From Gammaproteobacteria bacterium (GTDB lineage: Bacteria; Pseudomonadota; Gammaproteobacteria; WOZS01): a stretch of 64,000 bases of DNA. The notes beneath the pieces are model-generated. The model was not told the DNA's origin and searched no databases. It was given only the letters and a program-made list of their open reading frames with translations. A program made the position numbers and the translations under genes. The stretch is from NCBI GenBank assembly GCA_011620135.1, contig WOZS01000011.1, forward strand, positions 15,183 to 79,182, in the 5' to 3' direction. Below are positions 2,360 to 32,728 of the stretch, piece after piece. Positions within the stretch are counted from its first letter, which is position 1. Each line of letters starts with the position of its first letter.

Positions 2360-2436
2360 TGGGGTGAACGATGGGATTTGAACCCACGACCGCCGGAGCC
2401 ACAATCCGGAGCTCTACCAGCTGAGCTACGTCCACC
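2360..2436 (-). tRNA. tRNA-His (anticodon GTG)
   Basis: The reverse complement reads GGTGGACGTAGCTCAGCTGGTAGAGCTCCGGATTGTGGCTCCGGCGGTCGTGGGTTCAAATCCCATCGTTCACCCCA. It has the extra G-1 paired to C73, the anticodon loop TTGTGGC, the GGTTCAAATCC T-arm and an encoded CCA. It closely resembles E. coli tRNA-His. Confidence 0.85.
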
Positions 2437-5441: not shown

Positions 5442-6326
5442 ATGGACAAGCGCCGTGGCCTGGGCCGTGGTCTCGATGCCCTGCTGGGCACAGTCCCATC
5501 GCCTGCAGTCGATGCAGGCGCTGTGCTGCGCCTGCCGCTGGAGGTGGTGCAGCCCAGTCCCATCCAGCCGCGACGCCACATGGACCCCGAGGCCCTGGAG
5601 GAACTGGCTGCTTCCATGCGCAGCCAGGGCGTCCTGCAGCCCATCGTGGTCCGCAGTGCAGCCCAGGGCAATGCCTATGAGATCATCGCTGGTGAGCGGC
5701 GCTGGCGGGCTGCGGCGCTGGCGGGCCTTACCCATATTCCTGCTGTGGTGCGCCAGGTTGACGATGGCGTAGCCCTGGCCGTGGCACTGGTGGAAAACAT
5801 CCAGCGCGCCGCGCTCAATCCCCTGGAAGAAGCCCAGGCCATGGAGAAGCTGCGCAGGCTGTGTGGCATGACCCACGAGGCCATCGCCACGGCTGTGGGG
5901 CGCTCCCGGGCGGCGGTCACCAACCTGTTGCGCCTTCTGGAGCTCGAAGAGCCCGTGCAGGTCCTGTTGCTGGAAGGTGCCCTGGAGATGGGGCATGCCC
6001 GGGCGTTGCTGGCGCTTGCCGGCCCAGCCCAGGTCCAGGCAGCTCGGCAGGTGGTGCAAGGGCGGCTTTCGGTACGCAGGACCGAGGAGCTGGTACGCCA
6101 CCTGCTGCAGGGTGCGGCAGCCAAGGGAGCGGCTACCGAGGTCCACGAAATGCCGGCTTTCATGCAGCAGGCGCAAAGCAGCCTGAGTCAGCGTTTTGGA
6201 TTGCCCGTGGCCATCCAGCAGCGCGGCACAGGTGGTCAGGTGGTGATTCGTTTCCGGGATCGCCAGCAGTTCGAGGGTCTGCTGCAGGGTCTGCTGGAGT
6301 TGGAGGGTAAGCCGGAGCCGGAATGA
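5442..6326 (+). CDS. parB: chromosome partitioning protein ParB/Spo0J
   Basis: MDKRRGLGRGLDALL N-terminus, a GERRWRAA ParB box and an HTH region. The ATG lies 2 nt after the parA stop. Confidence 0.85.
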   Translation: MDKRRGLGRGLDALLGTVPSPAVDAGAVLRLPLEVVQPSPIQPRRHMDPEALEELAASMRSQGVLQPIVVRSAAQGNAYEIIAGERRWRAAALAGLTHIPAVVRQVDDGVALAVALVENIQRAALNPLEEAQAMEKLRRLCGMTHEAIATAVGRSRAAVTNLLRLLELEEPVQVLLLEGALEMGHARALLALAGPAQVQAARQVVQGRLSVRRTEELVRHLLQGAAAKGAATEVHEMPAFMQQAQSSLSQRFGLPVAIQQRGTGGQVVIRFRDRQQFEGLLQGLLELEGKPEPE

Positions 6327-6498
6327 CCGCATCCATGACTCGTGCCAAGTCATGTCATTGGCTCATGGACCTGTGCTCACTTGCACCATTTGGCAAGCCT
6401 GGGTACAGCAAGACCCTTTGTGCATCCATCCTGGGGGGCTTTGCTTGAAGGAATGGTTTTTATCGATGAGGCAGTGCCATGCATGGTAAGGCGAAGGC

Positions 6499-7650
6499 AT
6501 GATCGTTGGTCTGCCTGGCGAGCAACGTGCCGGCGAGCAGCGGGTAGCTCTGTTGCCCGAGACAGCTGCGGACTTGGTCAAGGCCGGCTTCCAGATCCTG
6601 GTGGCCCAGGGCGCTGGATGGGGCGCGCTGGTGGATGATGCCGCCTATGTGCAGGCCGGTGCCGTGGTGACAAGCCGGGAAGACGTGCTGGGGCGCGCCG
6701 CTATCCTGCTGTGGGTGCAGCCCGGGGACGCCGATCTCTCGAGCCTCGAGCGGGGACAGGTGGGCATCGGTTTCCTTGACCCCTTGCGCCAGGCATCCCG
6801 CCTGGCGGCGGCTGCAGCCACAGGAGCCATATGGCTTGCCCTGGAGCTGGTGCCCCGTACCACCAAGGCGCAGTGCGCCGATGCGCTCTCGGCCATGGCC
6901 ACGCTGGCCGGCTACAAGGCGGTGTTGCTGGCCGCCAATCACCTGCCGCGCGTGTTTCCGTTGCTGATGACGGCAGCCGGCACCCTTTTGCCGGCGCGGG
7001 TCTTCGTGCTGGGTGCCGGCGTGGCCGGCCTGCAGGCCATCGCTACCGCCAGGCGTCTGGGGGCCAGGGTATCGGCCTATGATGTGCGTCCCCAGGTGCG
7101 GGAGCAGGTGGCGAGCGTTGGCGGGCGTTTCGTGGAGCTGCCATTGGCTGCTGCAGCCGGTGAGGGTGGCTATGCCAGGGCCATGGATGAGACCTACTAC
7201 CAGCGCCAGCGCGAGCTCCTGGCCGAGGTGCTGCAGGCAAGCGAGGTGGTCATCACCACAGCCCAGGTGCCCGACGGACCAGCCCCCCTGTTGCTGACCC
7301 GCGCCATGATGGAGGCCATGCCCAAGGGATCCGTGGTGGTGGACCTCGCCGCCAACCAGGGTGGCAATTGTGAGGACGTGCAGCCCGACCAGGTGGTCAT
7401 GGTGGGCGCAACCACGCTGATCGGGGCTGGCAACCTGCCCGGCACAGTCCCTGCGCATGCCAGCCAGATGCTGGGGCGCAACATGCAGGCCATCCTTTCT
7501 TTCCTGGCACCCCGAGGCGAGCTGATCATGGATGACGATGTGATCCAGGCCATGGCGGTGACCCGGGATGGCGCGGTGGTGCACCCAGGTGTGACCCAGC
7601 GCCTGCAGGAGGCTTATGGAACCGGCCTGGATCAGGAGGAGCGCCCATGA
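6499..7650 (+). CDS. pntAA: NAD(P) transhydrogenase subunit alpha part 1 (dI, NAD(H)-binding)
   Basis: Alanine-dehydrogenase/PNT domain with a GAGVAGLQA Rossmann motif. Layout is the three-gene split pnt type. Confidence 0.85.
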   Translation: MIVGLPGEQRAGEQRVALLPETAADLVKAGFQILVAQGAGWGALVDDAAYVQAGAVVTSREDVLGRAAILLWVQPGDADLSSLERGQVGIGFLDPLRQASRLAAAAATGAIWLALELVPRTTKAQCADALSAMATLAGYKAVLLAANHLPRVFPLLMTAAGTLLPARVFVLGAGVAGLQAIATARRLGARVSAYDVRPQVREQVASVGGRFVELPLAAAAGEGGYARAMDETYYQRQRELLAEVLQASEVVITTAQVPDGPAPLLLTRAMMEAMPKGSVVVDLAANQGGNCEDVQPDQVVMVGATTLIGAGNLPGTVPAHASQMLGRNMQAILSFLAPRGELIMDDDVIQAMAVTRDGAVVHPGVTQRLQEAYGTGLDQEERP

Positions 7651-16191: not shown

Positions 16192-16713
16192 TCATGCCCT
16201 GACATGGCGGCCCATGGCCGCCAGGATGCCCAGCAGTAGGCGTTCGGGCGGCGGTGGACAGCCGGGAATGAATACATCCACGGGAATCACCTGGTCCACG
16301 CCGCCCAGGCTCGCATAGCTCGTCCCGAACAGCCCGCCGTTGCAGGCACAATCGCCTGCTGCGATCACCAGGCGCGGCTCGGCCATGGCATCCCAGGTGC
16401 GCAGCAAGGCCTCGGCCATGTGTCTCGAGACCGGGCCTGTTACCAGCAGGGCATCGGCATGACGAGGCGAGGCCACGAATCGCACCCCGAAGCGTTCCAG
16501 GTCATGGTAGGGGTTTTCCAGGGCCCCGATCTCCAGCTCGCAGCCATTGCACGAACCGGCGTCCACCTGCCGGATGGCAAGGCTTGCCCTGCACTGGGCA
16601 TCCAGCATGCGCCTGACCGCGATGCCGGCCTGTTCCAGGGCATGGGCATCCAGTTGCGGTGGGGCGTCGGTGCAGGTTGTGTTGCTGAGGATGGTGCGCA
16701 GGATGCGGATCAT
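16192..16713 (-). CDS. NuoB-like small subunit of Ehr/group-4-hydrogenase-like complex
   Basis: Fe-S ligand motifs GSCNGCE, GDCACNGG and PGCPP. This is the last gene of a six-gene complex-I-like cluster. Confidence 0.8.
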   Translation of the reverse strand: MIRILRTILSNTTCTDAPPQLDAHALEQAGIAVRRMLDAQCRASLAIRQVDAGSCNGCELEIGALENPYHDLERFGVRFVASPRHADALLVTGPVSRHMAEALLRTWDAMAEPRLVIAAGDCACNGGLFGTSYASLGGVDQVIPVDVFIPGCPPPPERLLLGILAAMGRHVRA

Positions 16714-16719
16714 GGCTGC

Positions 16720-18258
16720 TCAGAGATCACAGCCACTGTAGGATGCATTGACAGACTTGTTGCATACCGGAAAATCGGCGACAATGTTGCCGCCCACCAG
16801 CACCTCCAGCGCCGGCCAGGCAAACCAGCTTGGGTCCCTGGGAAAGAACCGCGCCACGTTGCCCTGGTCATCCAGGCGCACATGGGTGACGATCTCGCCG
16901 CGAAAGCCCTCCACCACACCCACACCTTCTGCGGCCATACCCGGGGGCCACGGCTCCTGGATGGGCCCTGGCGGGAGGTCATCCAGCAAGGCGTCCAGCA
17001 GCCTGACAGAGGCGCTGATCTCGGCCATGCGCACCTGCAGGCGTGCGGCCACATCGCCGCGTTGCTGCAGGCAGGGCTGGACAGGATGGCGGTCGTAGGG
17101 CGGCTGGGGGCGATCATGGCGCACATCCAATGACAGGCCACTGGCCCGGGCCAGATAGCCGCTCACACCAAGGCCGCGGGCGGCCACGGTGGAAAGCCGG
17201 CCTGTATTGAGCAGCCGATCCTGCAGGGGTGGGTAGTCCGTGAGGATGGGGGCGATATTTTGCCAGCGCTGCAGCATGTCGCGGTGGTTGGCGCGCAACA
17301 GCCTGATGTGCCCTGCATCGAGGTCGACCGCGACACCGCCTGGGGCGATGCAATCCATGAGCAGCCGATGGCCGAAGATGCCGTGCTGGCAACGCAGCCA
17401 TTCTTCCCGGAGCCTGCTGCATTGCATCTTGGCAAAGGCAAAACCCACGTCGCCACAGATGGCGCCCACATCGCCGAGGTGGTTGGCGATACGCTCGCGC
17501 TCGGCCAGGAAGCCGCGCAGCACGACCCCTCGGGCTGTGGGGGCAATGCCCAGGGCGCATTCCAGCGCCAGGGCTGCAGCCCAGCTGTGGGCGACGGTCG
17601 AATCGGCGCTGACGCGACTGGCAAGCGGGAGCAGTGCGGCGGGTTTTCTGCCACAGGCCAGCCATTCGATGCCCTTGTGCACGTAACCCAGGCGTTCCTC
17701 GAGCCCCAGGATGTCTTCGCCTGCCACAGAAAAGCGGAAGTGGCCAGGCTCGATGATGCCGGCATGCACCGGCCCCACGGGAATCTCATAGACACCTTCG
17801 CCACTGAAGGTGGCAAAGGGATAGCGGTCCCGGCCCCGCTCCTGTGGCGTCACAGGGGTGCGCAGGGGTGCTTCGTCGGCCTTCCAGGCGCCATGACGCG
17901 TCCATGGTGGATTGCACTCGCCAAAACGCACCCCCCACAGGTCATGGGCGTGGCGTTGCATCCTGTCTGCCGCCGGATACCAGCGCGCCCAGGAAGGCAG
18001 CCCCATCGTGCCATCAAGAGGCGTGGCGCGCAGCAGGACATACCAGCCATCCCGGGCGAGGCAGGCGTTGACCTCCAGCTTCTCGTCTCGCACATCGGCC
18101 CACAGGCCGGCGAAACGCAGCTGCCGCACGCTGGCTTCTGGAGCCAGCTGTGCCCAGTGTTCCGGGGCCACCGTCACAAGCAGTATCCGATCCTGAAGCA
18201 TCCGCGAAGACGTGCCCCATGCGCTCAGTTCCTGCAGCCAAGCTGGTGAGTTGTTCAT
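16720..18258 (-). CDS. fused NuoC/NuoD-like large subunit (HyfG/HycE-like) lacking the NiFe-binding CxxC
   Basis: 512 aa from the ATG at 18258, ATGA-coupled to the upstream gene. The L1 site reads AICGDVGFAF, whereas real group-4 hydrogenases have RxCGxCxxxH. The C-terminus lacks DPCxxCxxH. Confidence 0.75.
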   Translation of the reverse strand: MNNSPAWLQELSAWGTSSRMLQDRILLVTVAPEHWAQLAPEASVRQLRFAGLWADVRDEKLEVNACLARDGWYVLLRATPLDGTMGLPSWARWYPAADRMQRHAHDLWGVRFGECNPPWTRHGAWKADEAPLRTPVTPQERGRDRYPFATFSGEGVYEIPVGPVHAGIIEPGHFRFSVAGEDILGLEERLGYVHKGIEWLACGRKPAALLPLASRVSADSTVAHSWAAALALECALGIAPTARGVVLRGFLAERERIANHLGDVGAICGDVGFAFAKMQCSRLREEWLRCQHGIFGHRLLMDCIAPGGVAVDLDAGHIRLLRANHRDMLQRWQNIAPILTDYPPLQDRLLNTGRLSTVAARGLGVSGYLARASGLSLDVRHDRPQPPYDRHPVQPCLQQRGDVAARLQVRMAEISASVRLLDALLDDLPPGPIQEPWPPGMAAEGVGVVEGFRGEIVTHVRLDDQGNVARFFPRDPSWFAWPALEVLVGGNIVADFPVCNKSVNASYSGCDL

Positions 18259-19700
18259 GGCAGCGGGATGCTGATCCGGATGGCCGCATTCTGCAGCACA
18301 TGGAGGATGGGTGGCGGCATGAGCAGGCCCAGGATGACCACCAGGCCCAGCTGGAGCCATGAGGGCCACAGGGCGATGGTCTCCTTGGTTTGCATGGTCG
18401 TCGCAGCAGGCGCCTCGCCCAGGACCATGGGCTGAACCTGGCGCAGCAGGGCGGCAAAGGCAATCACCATGCAAAGCGCCAGCGACGCCGCAAGCCAGGG
18501 CTGATGGGCGGCAGCGCTGGTCAGGATGAGCAACTCGCTCACGAAAAGACCAAACGGTGGCAATCCAGCCATGGCGGCGGCTGCAGCCATGAAGGCCCAG
18601 CCCAGACGGGGGTCGAGGTGCAGCAGGCCGCGTATCCGCTCCGTGGAACGGCTGCCCGCTTTCCTGGTGACGGCCCCCACGATGATGAACAACGCCGCCT
18701 TACCCAGGCCATGGCACAAGAGATGCAGCAAGGCGGCGAAGGTGGCAAGCGGTGTACCCAGGCCCAGGGCGAAGGTGGCAATCCCCATGTGCTCGATGGA
18801 GGAATAGCCAAAAAGGCGCTTGATGTCCCGTTGCCGCAGCAACAGCAAGGCGGCCAGCAGTGTGGAGGCGAGGCCGAAGGCCAGCAACAGCATGTTCGGG
18901 ATATCGTGGCTGGCGGAGGTGGCCAGGGCCGCATCAGTGAGCATCTTGATGCGCAGCAGGGCATAGAGCGCCACATTGAGCAGCGTGCCCGAGAGCATGG
19001 CGAGCAGCGGGGCAATGGCCGCCGAATAGGCATCGGGCAGCCATTGGTGTAGCGGCACCAGGCCCGCCTTGGTGCCATAGCCTACCAGACAGAAGACGAA
19101 GGCTATGCCCATCACGGTGGGATCGAGATGGCTGGCTGCCGCATGGAGCGCTGGCCAGTTCATGGCCTGCTGCGGGTCATCCAGGGCTTGGTGGGCGGCA
19201 AAGGCCACCAGCACGGTGCCGAACAGCGCCTGGGCAATGCCCACGCCACATAACACGAAATACTTCCAGGCCGCCTCCACCGCCTGGGGAGTGCGGTTGA
19301 AGGCCACCAGCAGCACGGTGGCCAGCGTGGCTCCTTCCAGCGCCACCCACAGGATGCCGATGTTGCTGCAGGCCAGCGCCAGCTGCATGGTGCACGAAAA
19401 GGCCTGGAACAAGGGATAGAACAGGGCCGCACCACCCTTGCCGGCCGGCTCCAGGAAGTAGGGGCAGGACAGCGCCACGGTGAGGGTGATGAACCCTGTG
19501 GTCAGCAGAAAAGGCTTATTGATGGCATCCAGCATGAGTACTGTGCCGGCATGCGCCGGACCCAGCACAGCCAGGAGGGCGGCGATACAAGCCAGTGCAC
19601 TCGCCCAGAGGTTGATCTGCGCCTGATGCTGGCGATGGAAGGCCAGCAGGATGGCCGCTGCACCCGGGATCAGCACAGCAAGCCACAGGCTCATGGCCAT
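18255..19700 (-). CDS. NuoN/NuoM (HyfF/MrpD)-like antiporter-type membrane subunit
   Basis: 481 aa polytopic. Contains the conserved GLVPLHQWLPDAY motif and a FGYSSIEHMG block typical of complex I N/M subunits. Confidence 0.75.
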   Translation of the reverse strand: MAMSLWLAVLIPGAAAILLAFHRQHQAQINLWASALACIAALLAVLGPAHAGTVLMLDAINKPFLLTTGFITLTVALSCPYFLEPAGKGGAALFYPLFQAFSCTMQLALACSNIGILWVALEGATLATVLLVAFNRTPQAVEAAWKYFVLCGVGIAQALFGTVLVAFAAHQALDDPQQAMNWPALHAAASHLDPTVMGIAFVFCLVGYGTKAGLVPLHQWLPDAYSAAIAPLLAMLSGTLLNVALYALLRIKMLTDAALATSASHDIPNMLLLAFGLASTLLAALLLLRQRDIKRLFGYSSIEHMGIATFALGLGTPLATFAALLHLLCHGLGKAALFIIVGAVTRKAGSRSTERIRGLLHLDPRLGWAFMAAAAAMAGLPPFGLFVSELLILTSAAAHQPWLAASLALCMVIAFAALLRQVQPMVLGEAPAATTMQTKETIALWPSWLQLGLVVILGLLMPPPILHVLQNAAIRISIPLP

Positions 19701-20383
19701 TGTTTCTCCACAACGCCGCTTTCCTCGGTCAAGGCGCTCAGGCGATCCACATCCATGGAGTCGATGTTTTCCCGGATGTGCAGGAAAAAGATGCCAAAGA
19801 GCACCATGGCCAACAGCACATCAAAGGCAATGCCCAGCTCCACCACCAGCGGCATGCCTCCTGTGGCCGCCACGGCAGCGAGAAACAGGCCATTTTCCAT
19901 GGCCATGAACCCCACCACCTGTGCCATGGCCTGGTGGCGCACCACCATCATCAAAAGACCCAGCAGCACCACGGCGAGACTGACCATGATCACGCTGCCA
20001 TGGATAGACGAGGCCATCTGCGCAAGTGGCAGCACCACCCAGTAGCTGAACACCACCAGTGCAGCACCTGAAAAGAGGACGAGTCCCTGGTGGTCGAGCA
20101 CCTCAGCGCTGCGGTGCAACGCGAGGCGGTCCAGCTGCCGGTCCAGCATCCATGGGATGCACAGCCCCTTGAGGGCGAAGGTGAGCAGCGCCGAGACCAG
20201 CAACTCGCCACGGCCATCCACGATGCCGCGCAGCAAGGCCACCAGGGCCACACACATTCCTTGGATGGCACAGGCATAGATGACCGGCACAAGACGCGTC
20301 TGGCTCAGCAGCACGAACGAGGTGAGCAGCACCAAGCCCGCCAGGAAGGCCACGCCCTGCTCGGCAAGCGGCATACTGGTCAT
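19691..20383 (-). CDS. HyfE-like (NuoK-related) membrane subunit
   Basis: 230 aa, hydrophobic. C-terminal NuoK-like helix GFMAMENGLFLAA. Confidence 0.65.
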   Translation of the reverse strand: MTSMPLAEQGVAFLAGLVLLTSFVLLSQTRLVPVIYACAIQGMCVALVALLRGIVDGRGELLVSALLTFALKGLCIPWMLDRQLDRLALHRSAEVLDHQGLVLFSGAALVVFSYWVVLPLAQMASSIHGSVIMVSLAVVLLGLLMMVVRHQAMAQVVGFMAMENGLFLAAVAATGGMPLVVELGIAFDVLLAMVLFGIFFLHIRENIDSMDVDRLSALTEESGVVEKQWP

Positions 20384-21348
20384 GGATTGTGTTCCAGGAT
20401 GACATGGCTGAATAAGCCAAGCACCGCCAGCAGGAAGGCCAGGTTGAGCATGCCCGGGGCGCGAAACAGGCGCATCTTGGGCAGCAGTGCTTCGGTCAGG
20501 GCCAGCACCACGCCCAGGGCTGCCAGTTTGCCCATCAGGCAGAGCAATGCCAGGGCCAGCATGGCTGGGCTGGCATGGTCGGCCAGCCCCCAGGGGGCAA
20601 ACAGATCAGCCAGCAGGATGCCGTAGAACAAAAGTTTCATGTGGCCGCTCCATTCCACCAGCGCCAGGTGGCGGCCGCTCCACTCCAGCACCATGGCCTC
20701 ATGCACCATGGTGAGCTCGAGATGAGTGGTGGTGTTGTCGGCGGGCAGGCGGCCATTTTCCACGCCGGCCACCATCAAAAGGGCCAGCAGTGTGAACAGG
20801 AACGAGGGCCGCAGCATCATTCCGGTATCCAGCAGATGGCCCACCAGGACCGCAAGATTGCTGCTGTGGGCGGTCATGGCGAGACTGAACAGGCCAAGCA
20901 GCAGCGTGGGTTCGGCCAGGGCGCTCAGCATCAGCTCCCGGCTTGCACCCAGTCCCCCGAAGGCCGTGCCCGGGTCCAGGGAGCCGATCATCAAGGCCAC
21001 GCGCGCCAGGGTCAGGAAGCCTGTCAGCACCAGGACATCCGTGACGCTGGCCAGCGGTGTTTGCACGGTGAGCATGGGCAAGGCCGAGGAAGCCAGCAGC
21101 GTGGCGGCGAACATCACATAGGGGGCCATGCGAAACAGCCATGAGGCGGTATGGGGCACCACCGGTTCCTTGGCGAACAGGCGGCGCAGGTTGCGCCATG
21201 GCTGCAGGGGCGAAGGGCCACGGCGGTTCTGCAGCCGGGCACGCAGCATGTCCACCCAGCCATTGAGCAGCGGTGCCGCCAGGGCGAATAGCAGGATCTG
21301 CAGCGGCAGCATGGCCCACTCCAGGGCGTTCACCAGGACATCACCCAC
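20380..21348 (-). CDS. NuoH (HyfC/HycD)-like membrane subunit
   Basis: 322 aa. The N-terminal region RLQNRRGPSPLQPWRNLRRLFAKEPVVP is NuoH-like. Confidence 0.75.
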   Translation of the reverse strand: MGDVLVNALEWAMLPLQILLFALAAPLLNGWVDMLRARLQNRRGPSPLQPWRNLRRLFAKEPVVPHTASWLFRMAPYVMFAATLLASSALPMLTVQTPLASVTDVLVLTGFLTLARVALMIGSLDPGTAFGGLGASRELMLSALAEPTLLLGLFSLAMTAHSSNLAVLVGHLLDTGMMLRPSFLFTLLALLMVAGVENGRLPADNTTTHLELTMVHEAMVLEWSGRHLALVEWSGHMKLLFYGILLADLFAPWGLADHASPAMLALALLCLMGKLAALGVVLALTEALLPKMRLFRAPGMLNLAFLLAVLGLFSHVILEHNP

Positions 21349-23357
21349 AGCAGGACCAGCAATGTGCCCAGTGAAAAACCCAGGTACAGTCGCACCCGTC
21401 CCGACTGTAGACGGGCTGCGTGGCGCGAGAGGGACATGACAAACCGGGCCACCGGGGCATAGAGCAAGTCCCAGGTGCGATCAGCGATCTCCAGATGATA
21501 GCGCCGCCCCTGGGGGCTGCCGAGACGCTCATGGATCGACAGCAATCCGGCAAAGACCTGGCGCAGCGGCATAGCCAGGGCTGCAGGCGTGATCTGCATG
21601 CGTGCCGTGGGCGGCCCCAGTCCGCAGGCCCAGGGCTGGACCCGCCTGAGCGCGGCGCGTTTTCTGGTGTGCAACAGGGCGGCTGTACACAGGGCAATGA
21701 TCATGATCACGGCAAGGACCGCCAGCGGTGCATAGCTGGCCTGGGTTGCCGTCACAGGAGTGATGATCAGTGCCGAGGCCGTCTGCACGGCAGGGTGGTG
21801 CAGCAATGCCACTGTGACCTGGTTCAGCATCATGAGCAGCAGACCGGGAAACAGGCCGGAGAGCACACACAACGCGGCCAGCATACCCTGGGCAAGCAGC
21901 ATGGCGCGCGGCGCTTCCCTGGCGCGCCGCGCCGGGCGGCTGCGGGCCTGGCCCAGGAAGGCGCTGGCAAAGAGCCGCAGCAGGCAGGCCGTGCCCAGGG
22001 CCGTGGTCAGCGCAAGGCAGGCGGCGGCAAGCGGGATGAGGCTGCGCAGGATACCCTGCTCCATCTGCCAGGACTGCAGCGCTGCCTGGAAGAGCAGCCA
22101 CTCCGAGGCAAAGCCATTGAGCGGCGGGATGGCAGCCAGGCCCAGGCAACCCAGCAGGAACAGACCGCCGCTGGCGGGCATGCGTCGCAGCAACCCGCCC
22201 ATGCGCCCCAGGTCGTAGGTGTCGCAGGCCTGTTGGATGGTGCCAGCACCCAGGAACAAGAGCGCCTTGAGCAGGGCGTGGTTGAGCACATGCAGCAGGG
22301 CAGCTCCCAGGGCCATGGCGGCCAGCATGGCATGTCCAGTGGTGCGGTAGAGCAAGGCGAGCCCCAGGGCCATGGTGACAAGCCCCAGATTCTCGATGGA
22401 AGAACAGGCCAGCACCCGCTTGATGTCCTGCTGCACCAGCGCCAGCACCACGCCCAGCACCATGGAAAGGGCTCCTGTGGTGATCATGGTCACGGCAAGC
22501 CCAAGGGCCGATTGCACAGACACCAGGTCGAAGCACAAGCGCACCATGCCGTAGATGGCTATCTTGAGCATCACAGCAGACATCAAGGCCGAGATGTGCG
22601 ATGGGGCCGCTGGATGGGCCAGCGGTAGCCAGACATGCAGTGGGACAAGCCCTGCTTTGGCGGCGAAGGCAAGACAGGCGAGCGCCAGGGCCGCCATGGC
22701 GCTCGCTGAGGCAGGAGCCGCACGCCATTGAGCAAAATCAGGCCCGCCTGCCCCATGCGCCAAAAGGCCAAAGGCCAGCAGCAGGACAAGGGCTCCCATA
22801 TGGGCCACCAGCAGGTAGATCAATCCGGCCTGCCGGCTGGCACTCTCCTCATGGTGTTGGATCACCAGCAGGTACGAGGCAAGCGCCATGCCCTCCCAGC
22901 CCAGCATGAAAGGGAAGGCGTGAGCGGCAAGCAGCACCAGGATCATGCTGGCCACGAAAAAACCCGTGGCCACCCCCGGGCGCCTGAAGCCTGTCTCTAT
23001 ATGGAGCAGGTAGGGTCTGGCATAGAGGGCGATGGTGCTCACAACCGCGCCCAGCGGCAGCAGGAAGACGGCACTCAGTGGATCCAGGATCAGGTGCCAT
23101 GGAATGACGCCAAGGGTCATCACGACGGCATCGCTGGGGCCACCCAGCAGCAACCACAGTCCGGCGGCCAGACTGCACAGCCCGCTTGCCCCCAGGAGTT
23201 GCAGCGCGAGCCGTTCCCAGGAGCGCGGGCCTGCGGCACTCAATCCGGCGGCCATGGCAAGCCCCATGGCCAGCATGGCGAGTCCAAGGGGTGTCATGCC
23301 AAGGTATGCATCATTTTTCAAGGTACCCAGCCAGAATGGCGCTAGCCAGAATAGCAT
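21330..23357 (-). CDS. NuoL (HyfB/HycC/MrpA)-like antiporter-type membrane subunit
   Basis: 675 aa. Motifs WEGMALASYLLV, GLVPLHVWLPLAHPAAPSHISALM and SSIENLG. A likely internal start is at MTPLGLAML. Confidence 0.75.
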   Translation of the reverse strand: MLFWLAPFWLGTLKNDAYLGMTPLGLAMLAMGLAMAAGLSAAGPRSWERLALQLLGASGLCSLAAGLWLLLGGPSDAVVMTLGVIPWHLILDPLSAVFLLPLGAVVSTIALYARPYLLHIETGFRRPGVATGFFVASMILVLLAAHAFPFMLGWEGMALASYLLVIQHHEESASRQAGLIYLLVAHMGALVLLLAFGLLAHGAGGPDFAQWRAAPASASAMAALALACLAFAAKAGLVPLHVWLPLAHPAAPSHISALMSAVMLKIAIYGMVRLCFDLVSVQSALGLAVTMITTGALSMVLGVVLALVQQDIKRVLACSSIENLGLVTMALGLALLYRTTGHAMLAAMALGAALLHVLNHALLKALLFLGAGTIQQACDTYDLGRMGGLLRRMPASGGLFLLGCLGLAAIPPLNGFASEWLLFQAALQSWQMEQGILRSLIPLAAACLALTTALGTACLLRLFASAFLGQARSRPARRAREAPRAMLLAQGMLAALCVLSGLFPGLLLMMLNQVTVALLHHPAVQTASALIITPVTATQASYAPLAVLAVIMIIALCTAALLHTRKRAALRRVQPWACGLGPPTARMQITPAALAMPLRQVFAGLLSIHERLGSPQGRRYHLEIADRTWDLLYAPVARFVMSLSRHAARLQSGRVRLYLGFSLGTLLVLLWVMSW

Positions 23358-23408: not shown

Positions 23409-25223
23409 CTATTTGGTCAGGTTGGTGTTCAATAACAACAAGTCACAGCGCTGGCCGAGCCCCTTGAGCAGTTTGGTGTCGGTTTCCGGTGAGCGGGCGC
23501 CGAGGCAGAGGCTGGACTGGGCAAGACGGGCTGCCTTGCTCGAGGCAAACCGCAGTGTGAGCCGAAAGCCGCTTGCGGCCATGCCCGGATCGTTCAGCGC
23601 CATGGCCACATCGGTGCGCTTGACAACCATGGCCTCGATTGTGCTGGGCGGCTCCGGGGCAAGCAGGACCAATAGTCTGTCTTGCTCAGAATCGTGAAGT
23701 GGCAGATAGCCTGTAATGCTGAGCGTGTCATCTTGTAGCAACATGGTTTCCACCTGGCCGCCAAGGCCATTGCTGAGGGTGCCAGGGTACTGTTCTGGCA
23801 TGCCGGTGAAGACCAATGTCTTGAACGACATGCTGGCAGGTGGCAGGGTGACAAGCCCCAGCGGAGCGATGCGGTGGCTGATCAGCAGGCTTTGAGCATA
23901 GGCGTTGTAGATGCGCAGCCGGAAGGCTTCCTGGATCTCGGCCAGGGCCTGTACGGGGTAGCGAAACAGCAGGCCGCCTGGGTCTCCCGAGGCAAACCGT
24001 GTTGCTCCATCCACAAGTGCTGCGTGTCGCGCCCTGGCCAGGGGCAGGTTGACTGTCCATGAGAACAGGCAGAAGCCCAGCGCCAGCAGCACGGCCAGCA
24101 ATTGCGGGAGTGGCCGTAGTAAAACAATCCGCCAGCGGACACACAGTCCAAGCCAGACCACGGCCCCCAGCAGCGCGCTGTAGAAGGCATAGCGCGGGGA
24201 CAGGGCCTGCTCCAGGCCGAGCGTGCCGCGCCCGGCTGCGGTCATGGCCGCGGTCAGAAGCCCGAAGAGGATGAAGGCGGGGAACGGGGTGCATGGCTCG
24301 CGGGCCCTTGGTGATGAAGGCAGGCATGCCATCAAGCCCAGCGCCAGCACCACCACACCCCATGCCCAGGCTATCCTTTGTTGGCTGAAGATCGCCCCGC
24401 AAAACAGCGCGACGTAGCCCAGGAACTGGCCGGGATGGCGCAACGTGGCCTCAGGGGAGCTGGCTTCCGGCGGCGTGAAGTAGCCTTGGAAAAACCACCA
24501 CCACAACAGCAGGGTGATCAGCGCTCCTGCCATGAAGGTCATGCCTCTGCGGATGTGCAAGACGGTGAGGAGCACGGGCACGAAAAGCCCGTTGGCCTGC
24601 GAGCCCACCGCCAGCGCCGCCAGCAGGTAGGCCGGGATGAGATGGCCCCGGGCCGAGCACAGCAGCGCGGCGAGACCAAGCAGCATCACCTGGTAGTTGG
24701 ACAGCGCCGCCATGGCCCACAGCGCACTCTCCCAGGCGGCGGGCTGGAACAGCAGCAAGGCACAGGGCAGCAGCGCCAGGAGTTTCCTGTTGGCTGAAAA
24801 CATGGGCGGCAGCGCTTTGTAGAGCACCAGCAGCACTGCAGGCAAGGCGGCGTTGCCCAGCAGCGTGAGCCGTTGCAGGTTGACGGCCCCAAAAAGCCCC
24901 CAGTCGGCCAGGGCGACAAGTCTTGTCAGCACGATGCGATGGTTGCTGTTCTGGTGAATCAGCCAGTGGTAGGCCTCATGGAGGTTTTGGGCCTTGGCGA
25001 GGCGCGCCAGCGAGCCCAGGATGGCGCCAAAGTCGTCCATGATGGGGAAGTTGACGCTCAAGTTCAGGATGAAGACGAGATAGGCGGCCATGGGCAAGAG
25101 CAGCGCAGCCCAAAGCATGGCTGACTTGCCGGCCTCGCCTAGCTTTGGATGCCAGATGACCACAGGAATATCGGTATCAGATCTCGCATGGCCTCTTGAC
25201 CCAGCTTGGTGGATAGCGGGCAT
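23409..25223 (-). CDS. polytopic membrane protein, candidate GT-C family glycosyltransferase (arabinofuranosyltransferase-like)
   Basis: 604 aa. About 400 aa with 10 or more predicted TM helices, then a roughly 200-aa soluble C-terminal domain. A DD motif (FPIMDDFG) follows TM1, as in GT-C enzymes. A probable start is at MLWAALLL (25121). Lies 51 nt upstream of the Ehr cluster and downstream of the DPA-like genes. Confidence 0.45.
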   Translation of the reverse strand: MPAIHQAGSRGHARSDTDIPVVIWHPKLGEAGKSAMLWAALLLPMAAYLVFILNLSVNFPIMDDFGAILGSLARLAKAQNLHEAYHWLIHQNSNHRIVLTRLVALADWGLFGAVNLQRLTLLGNAALPAVLLVLYKALPPMFSANRKLLALLPCALLLFQPAAWESALWAMAALSNYQVMLLGLAALLCSARGHLIPAYLLAALAVGSQANGLFVPVLLTVLHIRRGMTFMAGALITLLLWWWFFQGYFTPPEASSPEATLRHPGQFLGYVALFCGAIFSQQRIAWAWGVVVLALGLMACLPSSPRAREPCTPFPAFILFGLLTAAMTAAGRGTLGLEQALSPRYAFYSALLGAVVWLGLCVRWRIVLLRPLPQLLAVLLALGFCLFSWTVNLPLARARHAALVDGATRFASGDPGGLLFRYPVQALAEIQEAFRLRIYNAYAQSLLISHRIAPLGLVTLPPASMSFKTLVFTGMPEQYPGTLSNGLGGQVETMLLQDDTLSITGYLPLHDSEQDRLLVLLAPEPPSTIEAMVVKRTDVAMALNDPGMAASGFRLTLRFASSKAARLAQSSLCLGARSPETDTKLLKGLGQRCDLLLLNTNLTK

Positions 25224-25379: not shown

Positions 25380-27188
<1,809 letters not shown>

Positions 27189-27239: not shown

Positions 27240-27998
27240 CTACAGACGCAGGCGAATGAACAAAGGTTCCGGGATGGCGCGCACCACCAGCATGATCCAG
27301 CGCCAGAACCACGGGGCATAGACCACCCCGCCCCGGCGGCCGGCCATGGCTTGCGCGATGGCACGACCCACCTGCTCTGGCTGAGCCCACAGCGCATTCT
27401 TGCTGAGGTCTTTTGTCATGGGCGAGTCCACGAAACCGGGCTTGACCGTGACCACCCTGACTCCCTTGGCCTGGAGCTGGTTGCGCAAGCCGGAGAGAAA
27501 GGCCGCAAGACCCGCCTTGGCGGCGCCATAGACATAGTTGGACTGCCGGCCCCGGTCGCCCGCCACAGAGGAGATGCCCACCAGAACGCCATGACCCTGG
27601 CTTGCCATGTGGTTGGCGGCCAGCTGCAGGATCGTGCAGGCACTGAGCAGGTTGGTCTCCAGCGCCTGGCGCAATGCCTTCATGTCGCTCTGGCACCTGG
27701 CCTGGTCGGGCAGGTCGCCATAGGCCAGGATGAGGCCATCGAGGCCGCCCAGGTGTGCGAGGGCGGCATCCAGCATGGCCTGGTGCATGGTCCAATCGCT
27801 GCAATCCATGATGTACGTTCCGGGCTCATGACTGCTGCGCAGCGCAAGGTCGGCTGCCACCAGGGCAAGGCGTTCCTTGTTGCGGGCCACGAGAAAGAAA
27901 CGGGCGTCCTGCTGGGCGAGGATTCTTGCCGTAGCCTCTGCGATGGCCGATGTGGCCCCGACGATCACGATACGCTTCACGCGCTCACCCGGCGCCAC
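27240..27998 (-). CDS. short-chain dehydrogenase/reductase, DprE2-like (decaprenylphospho-2-keto-ribose reductase-like)
   Basis: Rossmann motif GATSAIAEATAR and a YGAAKAGL catalytic Tyr/Lys. About 252 aa like Rv3791. Immediately downstream of a DprE1-like gene. Confidence 0.65.
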   Translation of the reverse strand: MAPGERVKRIVIVGATSAIAEATARILAQQDARFFLVARNKERLALVAADLALRSSHEPGTYIMDCSDWTMHQAMLDAALAHLGGLDGLILAYGDLPDQARCQSDMKALRQALETNLLSACTILQLAANHMASQGHGVLVGISSVAGDRGRQSNYVYGAAKAGLAAFLSGLRNQLQAKGVRVVTVKPGFVDSPMTKDLSKNALWAQPEQVGRAIAQAMAGRRGGVVYAPWFWRWIMLVVRAIPEPLFIRLRL

Positions 27999-29281
27999 AG
28001 GCTCGAGGAGATGGCGGGGTCACGCCGTGCGGCAAGCTCCGCCCATCGGGGGTAGGCGGCCTGGAATTGTTCCTTGGTCATCAGGGCATCCTTGGCGGGA
28101 TAGATGGCCCCGCCTGCTTCATGGATCAGGGTATAGAAGGCGCGCAAGGCGGCGATGGTCTGCGAGCCCTGGTGAGGCACATCCAGGGCCAGCGTTACCC
28201 CGGGCCTGGGGAAAGAGAGCCAACCGGGCGAGGCGCGCTCGCCGAACACCTTGAGCACCGCCAGGAATGAACCCATGCCCTGGGTAGCACAGCGTTCCAG
28301 CAGTTCATGGATGACGAAGGTGGCATGACCATGGGGCAGCACGCACTGCAACTGCAGGAAGCCCCTGGGCCCATAAAGCCGGTTCCAATGGGCTATATGA
28401 TCCAACGGATAGAAAAAACCCTTGTAATGGGCAAGGCGTGTGGTGGGCCGCAGCCGCTTCCAGTGGTAGTAGAGCGCATTGAAGGCGCGGATGCGCCGTG
28501 CCCCCACCGCGGGGAAGGGCAGTTCCCAGGGGATGGCCGCCTGCCAGCGTATGCCGGATGAACCCTTGGCCAGGGGTGGGGCATGATTGGCGCGCCACAG
28601 GATGCCCCGGCCCCTGGAGCGGGCCGGGGCAAGGCAATCCACCCAGGCGACCGTATAGTCGAAATCGCGGTCCGAGGCCGAACTCAGGGCAAAGAACTCC
28701 TCGAGGCTCCCAAAGGGGTGTTCCTCGACCACCATGAAGGGATTGGCCACGCGCAAAAGCTGGATGTCGACCCAGCCGACCCAGCCGGTGAGCCCCAGGC
28801 CGGCCACGGTGGCGCCGAACCAGCCATCCTTTTGCTGTGGCGTGCAGAGCATGGGCCGCCTGTCGGAACGCCACAGCTTGAAGCGCAGCACATGGCAGCC
28901 GAAGGTGCCGGCGGCATGATGGTTTTTGCCATGGACATCGTTGGCGATGGCCCCCCCCACCGTCACGAGCCTGGTGCCCGGTGTCACCGGCAGGAAAAAC
29001 CCTTGCGGCAGGGCAAAATCGATGATCTCCTCCAGCGTGGTGCCCGCCTCGCAGCGCAGCACGCCACTTTTGGCATCGAAGGCCAGCAGCCGGTTGCAGG
29101 GCCTGCCCAGCAGCAGTGTGCCGCTTTCGTTGAGACAGCAGTCCCCATAGCTGCACCCATTGCCCCGGGGCAATGCGCTGCTGTCGTCCGTGCCCAAGGC
29201 GGCCTCATGGTGGAAGGATACCCTCCGTCCTGATTGCTGGTGCACCGGCGGGTAGCGGCCGAACGATGGCAACCTGTTCAT
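27977..29281 (-). CDS. FAD-dependent oxidoreductase, DprE1-like
   Basis: FAD_binding_4 region with GGAIANDVHGKNHH. Start ATG at 29281 (MNRLPSFG) shares one nucleotide with the upstream stop (TGATG). Confidence 0.65.
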   Translation of the reverse strand: MNRLPSFGRYPPVHQQSGRRVSFHHEAALGTDDSSALPRGNGCSYGDCCLNESGTLLLGRPCNRLLAFDAKSGVLRCEAGTTLEEIIDFALPQGFFLPVTPGTRLVTVGGAIANDVHGKNHHAAGTFGCHVLRFKLWRSDRRPMLCTPQQKDGWFGATVAGLGLTGWVGWVDIQLLRVANPFMVVEEHPFGSLEEFFALSSASDRDFDYTVAWVDCLAPARSRGRGILWRANHAPPLAKGSSGIRWQAAIPWELPFPAVGARRIRAFNALYYHWKRLRPTTRLAHYKGFFYPLDHIAHWNRLYGPRGFLQLQCVLPHGHATFVIHELLERCATQGMGSFLAVLKVFGERASPGWLSFPRPGVTLALDVPHQGSQTIAALRAFYTLIHEAGGAIYPAKDALMTKEQFQAAYPRWAELAARRDPAISSSLWRRVSA

Positions 29282-30735
29282 CAGATGGCCAGCCAGAGGA
29301 TCAGCAGCGTGGCGCAGGCAATGAGCTGGCTGGTCCTGTCCTGGATGGCAAAGACCACAGGATCGTCGTGCATCTGGCCGCGATGAGCCAACAGCCACGC
29401 CCGGCTGATCCAGTACAGCAGCAGCGGGCAGAGCAACCACACCAGCGCGGGATGGCTGTACAGAGCCAGGATGTCCGGGCTATCGATGTAGAGCGCCAGG
29501 ACCAGCACGGCCATGTAGCCTGCGGCACAGCCCAGGCTGGGGAGCAACGCGAGGTCGGCCACCGCATAGCCCCGACCCATGAGGCTTTGGCGCCCTTCGG
29601 TCTGCATCACCAGGAGCTCGGTGTAGCGCTTGAGCAGCGCGAGGCTCAGGAACACGAAGATGGAAAAGGCCAGCAACCAGGAAGATACCGCGATGCTTCC
29701 CGCCGCGGCCCCTGCTGCCAGACGGATGGTGTAGAGCCCGGCCAAGACCAGCACATCCAGCAGGACGATGCCTTTCAGGATCCAGGAATAGAGCAGCGTG
29801 GTGGCGTAGTAGCCCAGCAGAACCAGCACGAAAGGCCAGGGCAGGGTCATGAGGCCCAGGAGCACGGCACCAGCGAACAAGGCAGGAATCCACAGCAGCG
29901 CCTCGCGCAGCCCCATGGCCCCGCTGGCCAGCGGCCGCAGGCGTTTCCGCGGATGGTGGCGATCTGCTTCCAGGTCCAGGAGATCGTTGAGCAGATAGGC
30001 ACTGGATGCGGCCATGGACATGGCCAGCATGGCCAGCAGCCCGGAACCGAACAGCTCGCTCCACTGGTGGCCCAGCGTGAAGGGCACCAGCACCAGGACG
30101 TTTTTTACCCACTGGTGCGCCCGCAAGGCCTTGAGGCGGATTTTCCAGCTGGGGGGTGGATCGCGCAGGATGGCGCTTATCTCGGCGATATTCTGGGCGG
30201 CGCGTACCAAAGCAGGCGTCGGATTGATCAGGATGGATTTCCGGGCTGCCTTGAAGATGGGTAGATCCACCATGGCATCGCCCACATAATCGAAGCCCTT
30301 GATACCGAAGCGGCTCGCCAGGGCAGCGGCCTTGTGGAAGCCCTTGAGATTCGCGTCCTGGTCTGTGGCCACCACGGCATCGAACAGGCCGAGATGATCG
30401 GCGATGGCCTGGGCATGGCCGATATGGCTGGCCGTGGCCAGGACCAGCGTGCGTCCCTGGGCTTTCTGCTGGCGCAGCCAATCGAGAAGTTGCTCGTTGT
30501 AGGGGAGGGCCGCAGGATCGATGGCCACGAAGCGGGCAAGCTGGTTTTTGAGGGCCACCCGGCCGCGATGCCCCCAGAGCGGCAGACGCCACAGCTGTCC
30601 TGGGTGCTTCCTGGCCAGCAGGCAGATGGATTCAAAGGTGATATCGCTGCGGATCAGTGTGCCATCCAGGTCCACGCACAGGGGCACGTCCCCCGCAGGA
30701 AAACTGTTCTGCTGCTGTGCCGTTTCACTGGTCAT
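29281..30735 (-). CDS. HAD-family phosphatase fused to UbiA-family polyprenyl-phosphate 5-phosphoribosyltransferase (DPPR-synthase-like)
   Basis: N-terminus has HAD motif I (CVDLDGTLIRSD) and a KGFDYVGDAMVDLPIF motif III region. C-terminus has 8-9 TM helices with NDLLDLEADRHHPRKRLRPLASG, the DPPR-synthase-type UbiA signature. Confidence 0.65.
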   Translation of the reverse strand: MTSETAQQQNSFPAGDVPLCVDLDGTLIRSDITFESICLLARKHPGQLWRLPLWGHRGRVALKNQLARFVAIDPAALPYNEQLLDWLRQQKAQGRTLVLATASHIGHAQAIADHLGLFDAVVATDQDANLKGFHKAAALASRFGIKGFDYVGDAMVDLPIFKAARKSILINPTPALVRAAQNIAEISAILRDPPPSWKIRLKALRAHQWVKNVLVLVPFTLGHQWSELFGSGLLAMLAMSMAASSAYLLNDLLDLEADRHHPRKRLRPLASGAMGLREALLWIPALFAGAVLLGLMTLPWPFVLVLLGYYATTLLYSWILKGIVLLDVLVLAGLYTIRLAAGAAAGSIAVSSWLLAFSIFVFLSLALLKRYTELLVMQTEGRQSLMGRGYAVADLALLPSLGCAAGYMAVLVLALYIDSPDILALYSHPALVWLLCPLLLYWISRAWLLAHRGQMHDDPVVFAIQDRTSQLIACATLLILWLAI

Positions 30736-30738
30736 GAT

Positions 30739-31770
30739 TCACGTCTGTTGTGCACGGCGGTACTGGAAAAGATAGGCAAGGCAACACAGGGCTCCAACGG
30801 CCACGCCAAACCACAAGGTGGCCAGGCGACTCACCAGGGTCACTCCCATGGCCTGCCCGCTGCCCAGGCCAATCGCCCCCAAGAGTAGCACCATGGCCCC
30901 CTCGGCGCCACCCACCCCGCCAGGGATCATGGAGATGGCCCCAGCCAGGAGACCTGCGGCATAGATGCCGACCACAAGCCCAGGCGTGGTGCCCTGGTGG
31001 ACGGCATCTACCAGCAGGTAGAAGCCCCAGCCCTCGGCAGCCCAGGCCACCAGGCCCGTCAGCAGGCCCATACCCAGCAAGGAGGGCGTGACAAGCCGCC
31101 AGGCGCGCAGCACAGCACCGATGGCGGTTTGTGCCAGGCGCACCACCAGGCCCCTGCGGCCCTCCAGACGCTTGCCCAGTGCCGCAAGCCACACCGGCTG
31201 TAGGCTCAAGGCGAACAGCAGGCAGCCAGCGGCGGCACCAAAGAGCAGCATGCCTTGCCCCGCACCCAGGAGAGAAAGGCACAGCAGAGCCAGCAGCAGC
31301 ACGGCCGCCAGGTCACAGAGCCTTTCCATGACCAGAACACCCAAGCTGTCCTCGAGCCGCACGCCGTGGGATAACAGCCACCAGGAGCGCACCGCCTCGC
31401 CGCTCTTGCCGGGCGTGGTGGTGAAGGCATATCCGGCAAGATAGATCAGCAATGAGGTGCCCAGGGTGGGGCGGGAGCCCAGCTGGCCGAGGAACACATG
31501 CCAGCGCACAAAGCGCAGCAGATAATTGAGCACCGAACAGCCCAGGACCCAAACCAGCAGTCTGCCATTCAGGCTGGCCAGTGCGCCGTGCAGGCTGTGT
31601 GCCGCGAGCAGGCCATAGAGTACGATGGCGGCAACAAAGATGACCGCGCTGCTATGGATGGCGCTGCGCAGGACCCGGCCGAAAGGCGGCGTGGTTTGCT
31701 GGTTCATGGCCGCAGCAGCCTGCCGGGGGGCAGGGGCATCATGAGGTTGTCCATGGTTCTGATCATTCAT
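30739..31770 (-). CDS. YbhN/LPG-synthase-TM (UPF0104) family membrane protein, putative flippase-like
   Basis: 343 aa polytopic, Gly/Leu-rich TM helices. ATGA-coupled to smpB upstream. First gene of the DPA-like block. Confidence 0.5.
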
Positions 31771-32249
31771 GCCTGACGCTGCAGCCGGGCTTTCTGGCGC
31801 ATCCAGTCGCGCTCCTTGGTCGCCTGACGCTTGTCGTAGAGCTTTTTCCCCTTGGCGAGACCAAAGGACAGCTTGACGCGTTGCTCGCTATAGTGCAGGT
31901 CCAAAGCCACCAGGGTATAGCCGCGTCGCTCCACCATACCCAGGAGCCGCCTGAGTTCCTTGCGGTGCAGCAGGAGTTTCCTGGTGCGCCGCGGATCGGG
32001 CTCGATGTGCGTCGAGGCGCTGGGCAGCGGGGTGATGAGTCCGCCCAGCAAAAAGGCTTCCCCATGGCGCAATACCACGTAGGCGTCGCGCAACTGGACC
32101 CGGCCAGCCCGGATGGCCTTGACCTCCCAGCCCAGGAGCACGAGACCGGCCTCGAAGCGCTCCTCGATGGAGTAATCATGGAACGCCTTGCGATTGCTGA
32201 TGATGGTTGAGTCGGTCACGGCAGGAGCGCGGTTCCATGCTTTTCTCAA
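31767..32249 (-). CDS. smpB: SsrA-binding protein SmpB
   Basis: Aligns with E. coli SmpB from the N-terminus ([30 protein letters not shown]). Confidence 0.85.
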
Positions 32250-32275
32250 GGGAGAGAATGCAATATACTAGCACA

Positions 32276-32728
32276 ATGCCTGTGATTTGCCAGAGTGAGT
32301 GCCTGGCGGCGGAGCCTGGGGTGGTCTTCGAGATCATCGCCACGGTGGATCGCTATCCTGACTTCGTGCCCTGGTGTACCGGGGCCTGGCAGGAAACCCT
32401 GGCTCCCAATCAGACCCTGGCCACCATCGAGGTAGCAGCCGGACCCTTTCATGAACGGCTGACCACCAGGAACATGCTCGAGTCACCCCGTGCCATTACC
32501 ATGGAACTGGTGAGCGGTCCTTTTCGTCACCTGCATGGCATCTGGCAGTTGGCTCCCTGCGAGGAAGGCACGGTGGTCACCTTGAGGCTTGATTTCACCT
32601 TGCGTAACCGCCTGCTGGCCATGGCGGTCAGTCGCTCCATGGACCGGGTATCCAGCCGTCTGATCGCCGCTTTCCGCCAGCGGGTGGAAGAGGCTGTGGT
32701 GCAAAAAAGCCAGGCGGCAGGCCGCTAG
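32276..32728 (+). CDS. ratA: SRPBCC-family ribosome-association protein RatA/YfjG-like
   Basis: START/Bet-v1-like; YPDFVPWCTGA matches RatA YPQFLPGCTGS. Divergent from smpB as in E. coli. Start chosen at MPVICQ. Confidence 0.7.
   Translation: MPVICQSECLAAEPGVVFEIIATVDRYPDFVPWCTGAWQETLAPNQTLATIEVAAGPFHERLTTRNMLESPRAITMELVSGPFRHLHGIWQLAPCEEGTVVTLRLDFTLRNRLLAMAVSRSMDRVSSRLIAAFRQRVEEAVVQKSQAAGR

Follow-up and report, generated by a model that had tools for sequence, protein, structure and literature searches.

In a 64,000-nucleotide stretch of gammaproteobacterial DNA (contig WOZS01000011.1 of assembly GCA_011620135.1), hereafter called the window, we found a minus-strand cassette of four co-directional genes at positions 27240-31770 that, judging from the encoded sequences, most likely makes a lipid-linked arabinofuranose (Araf) donor. 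Together with a GT-C-fold glycosyltransferase gene located beyond the neighboring housekeeping gene typA, this cassette probably forms a "three-component" system for D-arabinofuranosylation in the periplasm, in which a donor synthase and a flippase work together with a GT-C transferase. The cassette genes, which are tightly packed or overlapping, encode in order of transcription a membrane protein of the YbhN/PplT family, a HAD::UbiA fusion, a DprE1-like flavin adenine dinucleotide (FAD)-dependent oxidase and a DprE2-like short-chain dehydrogenase/reductase (SDR). A preliminary description of the window had already named these four as a coupled set, and the coordinates, the Pfam and NCBIfam assignments and the gene junctions all agree with it. 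Its reading of the cassette as a donor pathway is supported, but it called the pathway complete and missed the probable transferase, which is placed here at 23409-25223.

The proposed pathway would begin at the cytoplasmic face, where the UbiA domain would move 5-phosphoribose from phosphoribosyl pyrophosphate (PRPP) onto a polyprenyl phosphate, presumably undecaprenyl rather than decaprenyl phosphate, and the fused HAD domain would strip the 5-phosphate to leave polyprenyl-phosphate-ribofuranose. The DprE1-like flavoenzyme would then oxidize C2 to a 2-keto sugar, which the DprE2-like SDR would reduce to polyprenyl-phosphate-D-arabinofuranose. This donor may be flipped to the periplasmic leaflet by the YbhN/PplT-family protein, and the GT-C protein encoded after typA would there transfer Araf to an envelope glycan or protein.

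The HAD::UbiA fusion protein

The fusion gene (29281..30735, minus strand) encodes 484 amino acids and matches the NCBIfam model NF006088/PRK08238 at 614 bits (cutoff 351). A HAD-type 5-phosphoribose phosphatase domain is predicted at approximately residues 15-175 (PF12710, 3.6e-9), followed by the UbiA domain (PF01040) at approximately residues 195-484. When the UbiA half was compared with all PDB sequences, the only matches at E<=0.001 were to the Mycobacterium tuberculosis DPPRS (8j8j/8j8k, 2.3e-25), and no other prenyltransferase chain was found at that threshold. Likewise, three DPPRS models in NCBIfam scored 107-137 bits, as compared with at most 52 bits for the heme-O, GGGP, UbiA and other prenyltransferase models. 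Because the DPPRS models score so much higher, we rejected an identity as a menaquinone, ubiquinone or heme-O prenyltransferase; the grouping with DPPR synthases proposed in the preliminary description is thereby upheld. The best of these scores, 137 bits, is nevertheless below the DPPRS equivalog cutoff of 207.

Residue conservation points in the same direction. The motif NDLLDLEADRHHPRKRLRP, quoted earlier as a signature of DPPR synthases, is indeed found in the protein, as are the NDxxDxxxD loop and the R..E loop of UbiA-type phosphoribosyltransferases. In an alignment of 12 homologous sequences, D22/D24 (the DxD pair), N250, D251, D254, D258, R370 and E373 are invariant, and so is the entire HAD motif V21-D22-L23-D24-G25. 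Seven of these residues (D22, N250, D251, D254, D258, R370 and E373) are colinear, with an offset of 3-4, with D18, N247, D248, D251, D255, R366 and E369 of ORF15 from Citrobacter youngae, which are the residues that were mutated in that protein (PMC11127046). The comparisons thus support the view that the fusion is a bifunctional phosphatase and polyprenyl-phosphate 5-phosphoribosyltransferase, with a UbiA domain that groups with the phosphoribosyltransferases.

The oxidase and the reductase

The oxidase gene (27977..29281, minus strand; PF01565) encodes 434 amino acids. Its start lies at 29281, and not at 29284 as given before, so that it overlaps the end of the fusion gene by 1 nt (TGATG). 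The motif GGAIANDVHGKNHH attributed to it is present. In the PDB its best match was DprE1, at 8e-62 and spanning residues 35-423, whereas the second-best family reached only 3.7e-5. The score against the DprE1 model NF053785, 302 bits, falls below the cutoff of 500. The motif around Lys418, an essential residue of DprE1, is retained (YPAKD versus YTAKD in 21gq_A). Cys387 of M. tuberculosis DprE1 is the cysteine that reacts with benzothiazinones (BTZ). Because the aligned position is Ala in the window protein, the latter is predicted to be insensitive to covalent BTZ-type inhibitors.

The SDR gene (PF00106) spans 27240..27980 or 27240..27998 on the minus strand, corresponding to 246 or 252 amino acids. 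It likely starts at the GTG at 27980, in which case it overlaps the oxidase gene in a GTGA; a start at the GTG further upstream would extend the overlap to 22 nt. The protein scored 299 bits against NF005489/PRK07102 (cutoff 267) but only 186 bits against the DprE2 model (cutoff 250), and its best PDB match was DprE2 (21gq_C, 9.3e-30), ahead of the next at 6.8e-19. The closer affinity of both proteins to DprE1 and DprE2 than to generic oxidoreductases, as expected at the outset, was thus recovered. By homology, the oxidase would oxidize polyprenyl-phosphate-ribofuranose at C2, and the SDR would give the arabino configuration by reducing the resulting 2-keto sugar.

Taken together, the synthase, oxidase and reductase are homologs of the mycobacterial proteins and not orthologue-grade matches, and since the scores are under the equivalog cutoffs the exact product is not guaranteed. 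The cassette might, for instance, make another pentofuranose or a stable keto-sugar, or its lipid-linked pentose might serve a natural-product pathway instead of envelope glycosylation. Other epimerases, giving xylofuranose (Xylf), have been reported (PMC11127046), and in Burkholderia stagnalis the same cassette, supplemented by a further SDR and an FAD oxidoreductase, has isonitrile synthase genes as neighbors. We nevertheless regard such a product or role as quite improbable, considering that DprE1 and DprE2 far outscore all other solved proteins, that the catalytic Lys is kept, and that no natural-product genes occur within the window. In addition, DprE1/E2 homologs were present in the candidate modification system of every sequenced producer of Araf glycans examined by Kelly et al. 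(PMC11127046).

The YbhN/PplT-family protein as a candidate flippase

The first cassette gene (30739..31770, minus strand) encodes a polytopic protein of 343 amino acids, separated from the fusion gene by a spacer of 3 nt. No other membrane protein without an enzymatic role is encoded in the operon. Its match to PF03706 (LPG_synthase_TM) is full-length, covering positions 6-302 of 302 (2.7e-40; 139 bits, cutoff 33), and the flippase-like domain TIGR00374 was identified at 78 bits (cutoff 43). A sequence search of the PDB with the protein gave no meaningful match to any solved chain. No GtrA-like open reading frame (ORF) was found within the window; MATE proteins were not searched for with a model.

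Gene neighborhoods were counted around the fusion gene in 80 genome loci from many phyla, 46 of which had full flanks. A YbhN homolog adjoined the cassette in 21 of the 80. Culturable carriers of such a YbhN-type cassette include Xanthomonas albilineans, Mesorhizobium shonense or M. captivum, Pseudomonas folii and Schauerella fraxinea. Among the full-flank loci, 14 had only YbhN nearby, 15 only a GtrA-like gene, two had both and 15 had neither (Fisher p=0.023), and YbhN occurred only where the FAD and SDR genes were both present, i.e. in 16 of 35 such loci versus none of the other 11 (p=0.008). Since the loci share kinship, these p-values are optimistic. The pattern fits a non-orthologous displacement of the GtrA-type flippase by the YbhN/PplT protein, and this genomic association makes the latter a candidate flippase for the polyprenyl-phosphate pentofuranose. 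In one uncultured proteobacterium (CAVUMJ010000353.1, 1638-4070), a stop-free frame of 811 codons joins a YbhN/PplT protein in frame to HAD::UbiA. This resembles a Rosetta-stone fusion, but may also be an assembly or frameshift artefact.

An alternative is that the YbhN-like protein has another membrane role, e.g. as a general phospholipid translocase, and that the donor is flipped by an unlinked transporter or by the GT-C protein itself. Free-standing YbhN/PplT proteins have indeed been discussed as phospholipid translocases, and translocation of the donor by the GT-C has been raised for TfpW in a preprint; moreover, 15 of the 46 full-flank loci have neither YbhN nor GtrA nearby. The short distance between the ybhN stop and the fusion start, the recurrent synteny, the near-exclusion of YbhN and GtrA-type genes (together in only two of the 46), the confinement of YbhN to cassettes with DprE1/E2 homologs and the in-frame fusion above all speak against this alternative, which we find rather unlikely.

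The GT-C protein as a candidate arabinofuranosyltransferase

The GT-C gene (23409..25223, minus strand) encodes 604 amino acids, and its product had no match in Pfam or NCBIfam. Translation may actually begin at Met36 (position 25118). Only eight close homologs were found, while an exhaustive profile search with the transmembrane region recovered 5,642 cluster representatives (at 50% identity) among 1.84 billion. A Pfam scan of 59 family members gave one weak GT87 match and otherwise no domain, with no meaningful EpsG match, and a PDB sequence search with the family profile likewise returned no meaningful match.

A first AlphaFold2 model, built from 10 sequences, was mediocre (predicted local distance difference test, pLDDT, of 67) and was superseded by one from a 59-sequence alignment (pLDDT 89, predicted template modeling score 0.77). 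For the latter, the nearest solved fold is that of AftB, an arabinofuranosyltransferase that uses decaprenyl-phospho-arabinose (DPA). P60, D63, H95, R332 and Y345 are invariant in the family, while N58, D64, Q91, R96 and R344 are nearly so; D63/D64 directly follow the first transmembrane helix, which is the site of the catalytic acids in GT-C enzymes. D63/D64, H95/R96 and R344/Y345 are reminiscent of the essential D31, E34, H106 and R349 of C. youngae ORF12, a likeness by description and not by sequence comparison. The C-terminal periplasmic domain (residues 465-600, approximately) is rich in beta structure and bears a resemblance, but no more than that, to carbohydrate-binding modules known from ORF12 and Emb proteins.

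In five of the 80 loci, all unrelated, a member of the GT-C family lies no further than 10 kb from the fusion gene; two of these loci are from Paraburkholderia and one each from Caballeronia, Schauerella and Spongiibacteraceae. In the Schauerella locus the GT-C gene is directly downstream of the YbhN gene. A distant family member also closes a polysaccharide cluster of the ABC-transporter type. As the family is rare, its enrichment near cassettes is hard to ascribe to chance, although it concerns only a minority of cassettes. On the basis of the modeled fold and the genomic linkage, the 604-amino-acid protein is a probable arabinofuranosyltransferase using the donor of the cassette.

The competing explanation is that the cassette makes the donor while the GT-C protein is unrelated to it, the real transferase being encoded elsewhere in the genome. 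In its favor, typA (25380..27188, minus strand) intervenes and is followed by a 156-nt gap before the GT-C gene, a strain-specific insertion of 2.1 kb separates typA and the GT-C gene in one relative (L001), and most cassettes in other genomes lack this GT-C family. Against this stand the above proximity of so rare a family (about 5,600 of 1.84 billion representatives) to the fusion gene, in one case adjoining YbhN, the best structural match to a DPA-using arabinofuranosyltransferase, and the finding of no other GT-C candidate within the window. We therefore consider an unlinked transferase unlikely.

Operon structure and its conservation in relatives

The block of genes transcribed in the same direction is wider than the cassette itself. 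Upstream of ybhN is smpB (31767..32249, minus strand), the housekeeping gene for the SsrA-binding protein (PF01668, 2.7e-53; NF003843, 197 bits), the stop codon of which overlaps the ybhN start in an ATGA at 31767-31770, as it does in the relatives L004 and L006. Downstream, a gap of 51 nt separates the SDR gene from typA/bipA, which encodes a translational GTPase (TIGR01394, 869 bits, cutoff 757) and is another housekeeping gene. A pattern scan for promoters and terminators across the block found no convincing one, and nothing above the shuffled expectation.

The order smpB-ybhN-fusion-FAD-SDR-typA-GT-C is whole in L004 and L006. In L001, the contig starts within the C-terminal part of typA and continues through the 2.1-kb insertion into the GT-C gene. 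No other relative has a contig extending to the GT-C gene, and all three retain the order, L001 as far as it is covered, from typA onward; the position of typA is identical in the three. Identity to the window proteins is lowest for the GT-C protein (74-78%), followed by YbhN (80-86%), the enzymes (83-93%) and finally SmpB and TypA (93-95%). A gradient in which the GT-C protein diverges more than YbhN, and YbhN more than the enzymes, would be compatible with a surface-facing determinant of specificity.

A recent horizontal insertion of the cassette was rejected, as GC content plotted in 2-kb bins does not change abruptly where the cassette begins or ends; the values are 0.64 for the cassette, 0.64 toward typA and 0.58 for the 2-kb bin beyond smpB.

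Comparison with known systems

The closest precedent is the three-component type described by Kelly, Whitfield et al. (PNAS 2024, PMC11127046). In ORF15 of C. youngae O1, a HAD phosphoribose phosphatase at the N terminus is joined to a UbiA-type polyprenyl-phosphate phosphoribosyltransferase at the C terminus, and farnesyl-phosphate-ribofuranose was formed in vitro from PRPP. The systems combine such a donor synthase with a MATE or SMR flippase and a GT-C protein founding family GT136, and are accompanied by DprE1/E2 homologs wherever the glycan carries Araf (PMC11127046). Like the C. youngae O1/O2 ORF15-ORF14-ORF12 set, the window has a single-chain HAD and UbiA-type synthase with colinear catalytic residues, a GT-C protein with a C-terminal beta-rich domain and DprE1/E2-type proteins for the epimerization that goes with the Araf variants; a UbiA phosphoribosyltransferase, a DxD HAD phosphatase and a nearby GT-C are thus all there. 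It differs in that the flippase candidate is of the YbhN/PplT type and not MATE or SMR/GtrA, that the GT-C comes from a family covered by neither Pfam nor NCBIfam, and that the genes lie between smpB and typA instead of within an O-antigen or exopolysaccharide (EPS) cluster.

With the mycobacterial DPA pathway (Rv3806c, Rv3807c, DprE1, DprE2, Rv3789 and Aft/Emb), the window shares a homologous synthase (2.3e-25), oxidase (8e-62) and reductase (9e-30), and the modeled GT-C has AftB as its nearest solved fold. In contrast to mycobacteria, the phosphatase is a fused HAD domain and not the PAP2-type Rv3807c, no GtrA-like homolog of Rv3789 is found, the carrier is presumably undecaprenyl, the residue corresponding to Cys387 of DprE1 is Ala, and the scores are below the equivalog cutoffs.

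The same DPPRS/DprE1/DprE2 logic, leading to lipid-linked D-Araf for a membrane transferase, is seen in the rhizobial noeCHOP genes, which are required for D-arabinosylation of Nod factors (PMC5080398), and in Pseudomonas aeruginosa PA7/Pa5196, where pilin is arabinosylated via TfpW (preprint). Unlike in the window, the phosphatase of P. aeruginosa and of Rhizobium sp. IRBG74 (candidate NoeN) is a separate protein. The acceptors of these systems are pilin and a lipo-chitooligosaccharide, and their genes are situated beside pilin and nod genes, neither of which occur in the window. Lastly, the window YbhN shares its full-length PF03706 match with the MprF flippase domain and the PplT family, but is free-standing and coupled to a polyprenyl-phosphate sugar pathway, and not to aminoacyl-phospholipid or cardiolipin synthesis.

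Assessment of the proposed system

Several points weigh against the arabinofuranosylation system as put together here. The organism is known only as a metagenome-assembled genome, and genes of an acceptor pathway (O-antigen, EPS or pilin) are absent within the window. With typA standing between the GT-C gene and the cassette, the linkage within the lineage rests on close relatives, and elsewhere only the above five of 80 loci pair the two. The three enzymes all score under the NCBIfam equivalog cutoffs for the mycobacterial proteins, and the statistics on YbhN come from loci that are not phylogenetically independent. In the preprint on PplT (bioRxiv 10.1101/2022.03.11.483950), members of the family are regarded as translocases of phospholipids; fusions with glycosyltransferase and dehalogenase-like domains are mentioned there, and no polyprenyl substrate is assigned.

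A more far-reaching proposal combines two parts, namely that polyprenyl-phosphate-Araf is flipped by the free-standing YbhN/PplT proteins belonging to this clade, which would form a third class besides MATE and SMR/GtrA, and that the 604-amino-acid protein founds a family of GT-C arabinofuranosyltransferases outside actinobacteria, of about 5,600 clusters at 50% identity. We offer this combination tentatively, and lean slightly against both parts being true at once.

Distribution of the cassette

The fusion has at least 7,930 database homologs, including proteins approximately 50% identical in Burkholderia, Acidithiobacillus, Aquabacterium, Acidobacteriota, Verrucomicrobia and others, and has its own NCBIfam model. 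It was also found on 102 plasmids, while a search of a phage collection with the fusion protein gave one weak partial match. FAD and SDR homologs accompanied it in 52 of the 80 loci, in nearly all of them directly downstream. Neighboring gene clusters there include genes for GtrA-like proteins, enzymes of sugar-nucleotide metabolism, Wzt, WecA-like proteins and GT2, a composition typical of loci for glycan synthesis. With this very widespread cassette, C. youngae ORF15 (PMC11127046) and noeCHOP (PMC5080398), the preliminary statement that only a few cases were characterized outside actinobacteria was too modest. The system in the window is not rare, but is a locally unusual copy of a widespread type first characterized in 2024.

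The B. stagnalis cassette mentioned above is located on a plasmid (NZ_CP156687.1, 1-15243), where the fusion, FAD and SDR genes, together with the additional SDR and FAD oxidoreductase and a GtrA gene, are found beside genes of the isonitrile synthase family. Such a setting is a hint that the product of certain cassettes may go into glycosylated natural products and not into glycans of the envelope.

Genomic surroundings

The remainder of the window is of housekeeping character, with hyf-like, pur, argH, hem and RNase E/G genes around the cassette in addition to smpB and typA, and no other glycan genes were found within it. The nearest named relatives of TypA, approximately 70% identical, are from Ca. 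Macondimonas, Sulfurivermis, Acidiferrobacter, Competibacteraceae and Thioalkalivibrio, which indicates an uncultured gammaproteobacterium as the host; the earlier designation as a proteobacterium was thus correct.

The GT-C gene is followed immediately by a series of genes (16192-23357, minus strand) for hyf/Mrp-like membrane proteins and hydrogenase-type subunits, which looks like a formate-hydrogenlyase or group-4 hydrogenase-like complex; the equivalent genes in L001 carry Proton_antipo_M, NADHdh, Complex1_49kDa/NiFeSe_Hases and Oxidored_q6 domains. The 2.1-kb segment of L001 (201-2311) contains small ORFs, and in the same relative a HARE-HTH gene (4176-4985) follows the GT-C gene. Between bamE and ratA, L004 has a gene (5510-7105) for a Pfam-less protein of 531 amino acids that is also found in L005 and is missing from the window. 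A ratA-like gene (Polyketide_cyc, 32207-32728, plus strand) is divergent from smpB, and as longest ORFs their 5' ends overlap by about 40 nt, the real starts probably being internal. The sole RNA gene identified in the window by Rfam and ARAGORN is tRNA-His(GTG) at 2360-2435 (minus strand); these scans found no tmRNA gene near smpB.

Implications

The chemistry of donor synthesis is already established, given the precedents of C. youngae ORF15, TfpW and noeCHOP, and will not surprise specialists. What sets this locus apart is the YbhN-type flippase candidate, the unclassified GT-C family and the embedding in a housekeeping operon. If our interpretation is true, an MprF-flippase-like protein would export lipid-linked D-Araf donors in many Gram-negative lineages, so that a defined and testable substrate would for the first time be assigned to a PplT protein of the free-standing kind, and the three-component model of 2024 would be extended. 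A large GT-C family outside the Pfam and NCBIfam models would likewise become a source of candidate pentofuranosyltransferases, useful for the annotation of surface glycans and for glycoengineering. The organism itself would be predicted to bear an envelope component decorated with Araf, the genes for which lie among core housekeeping genes and not in a variable O-antigen island.

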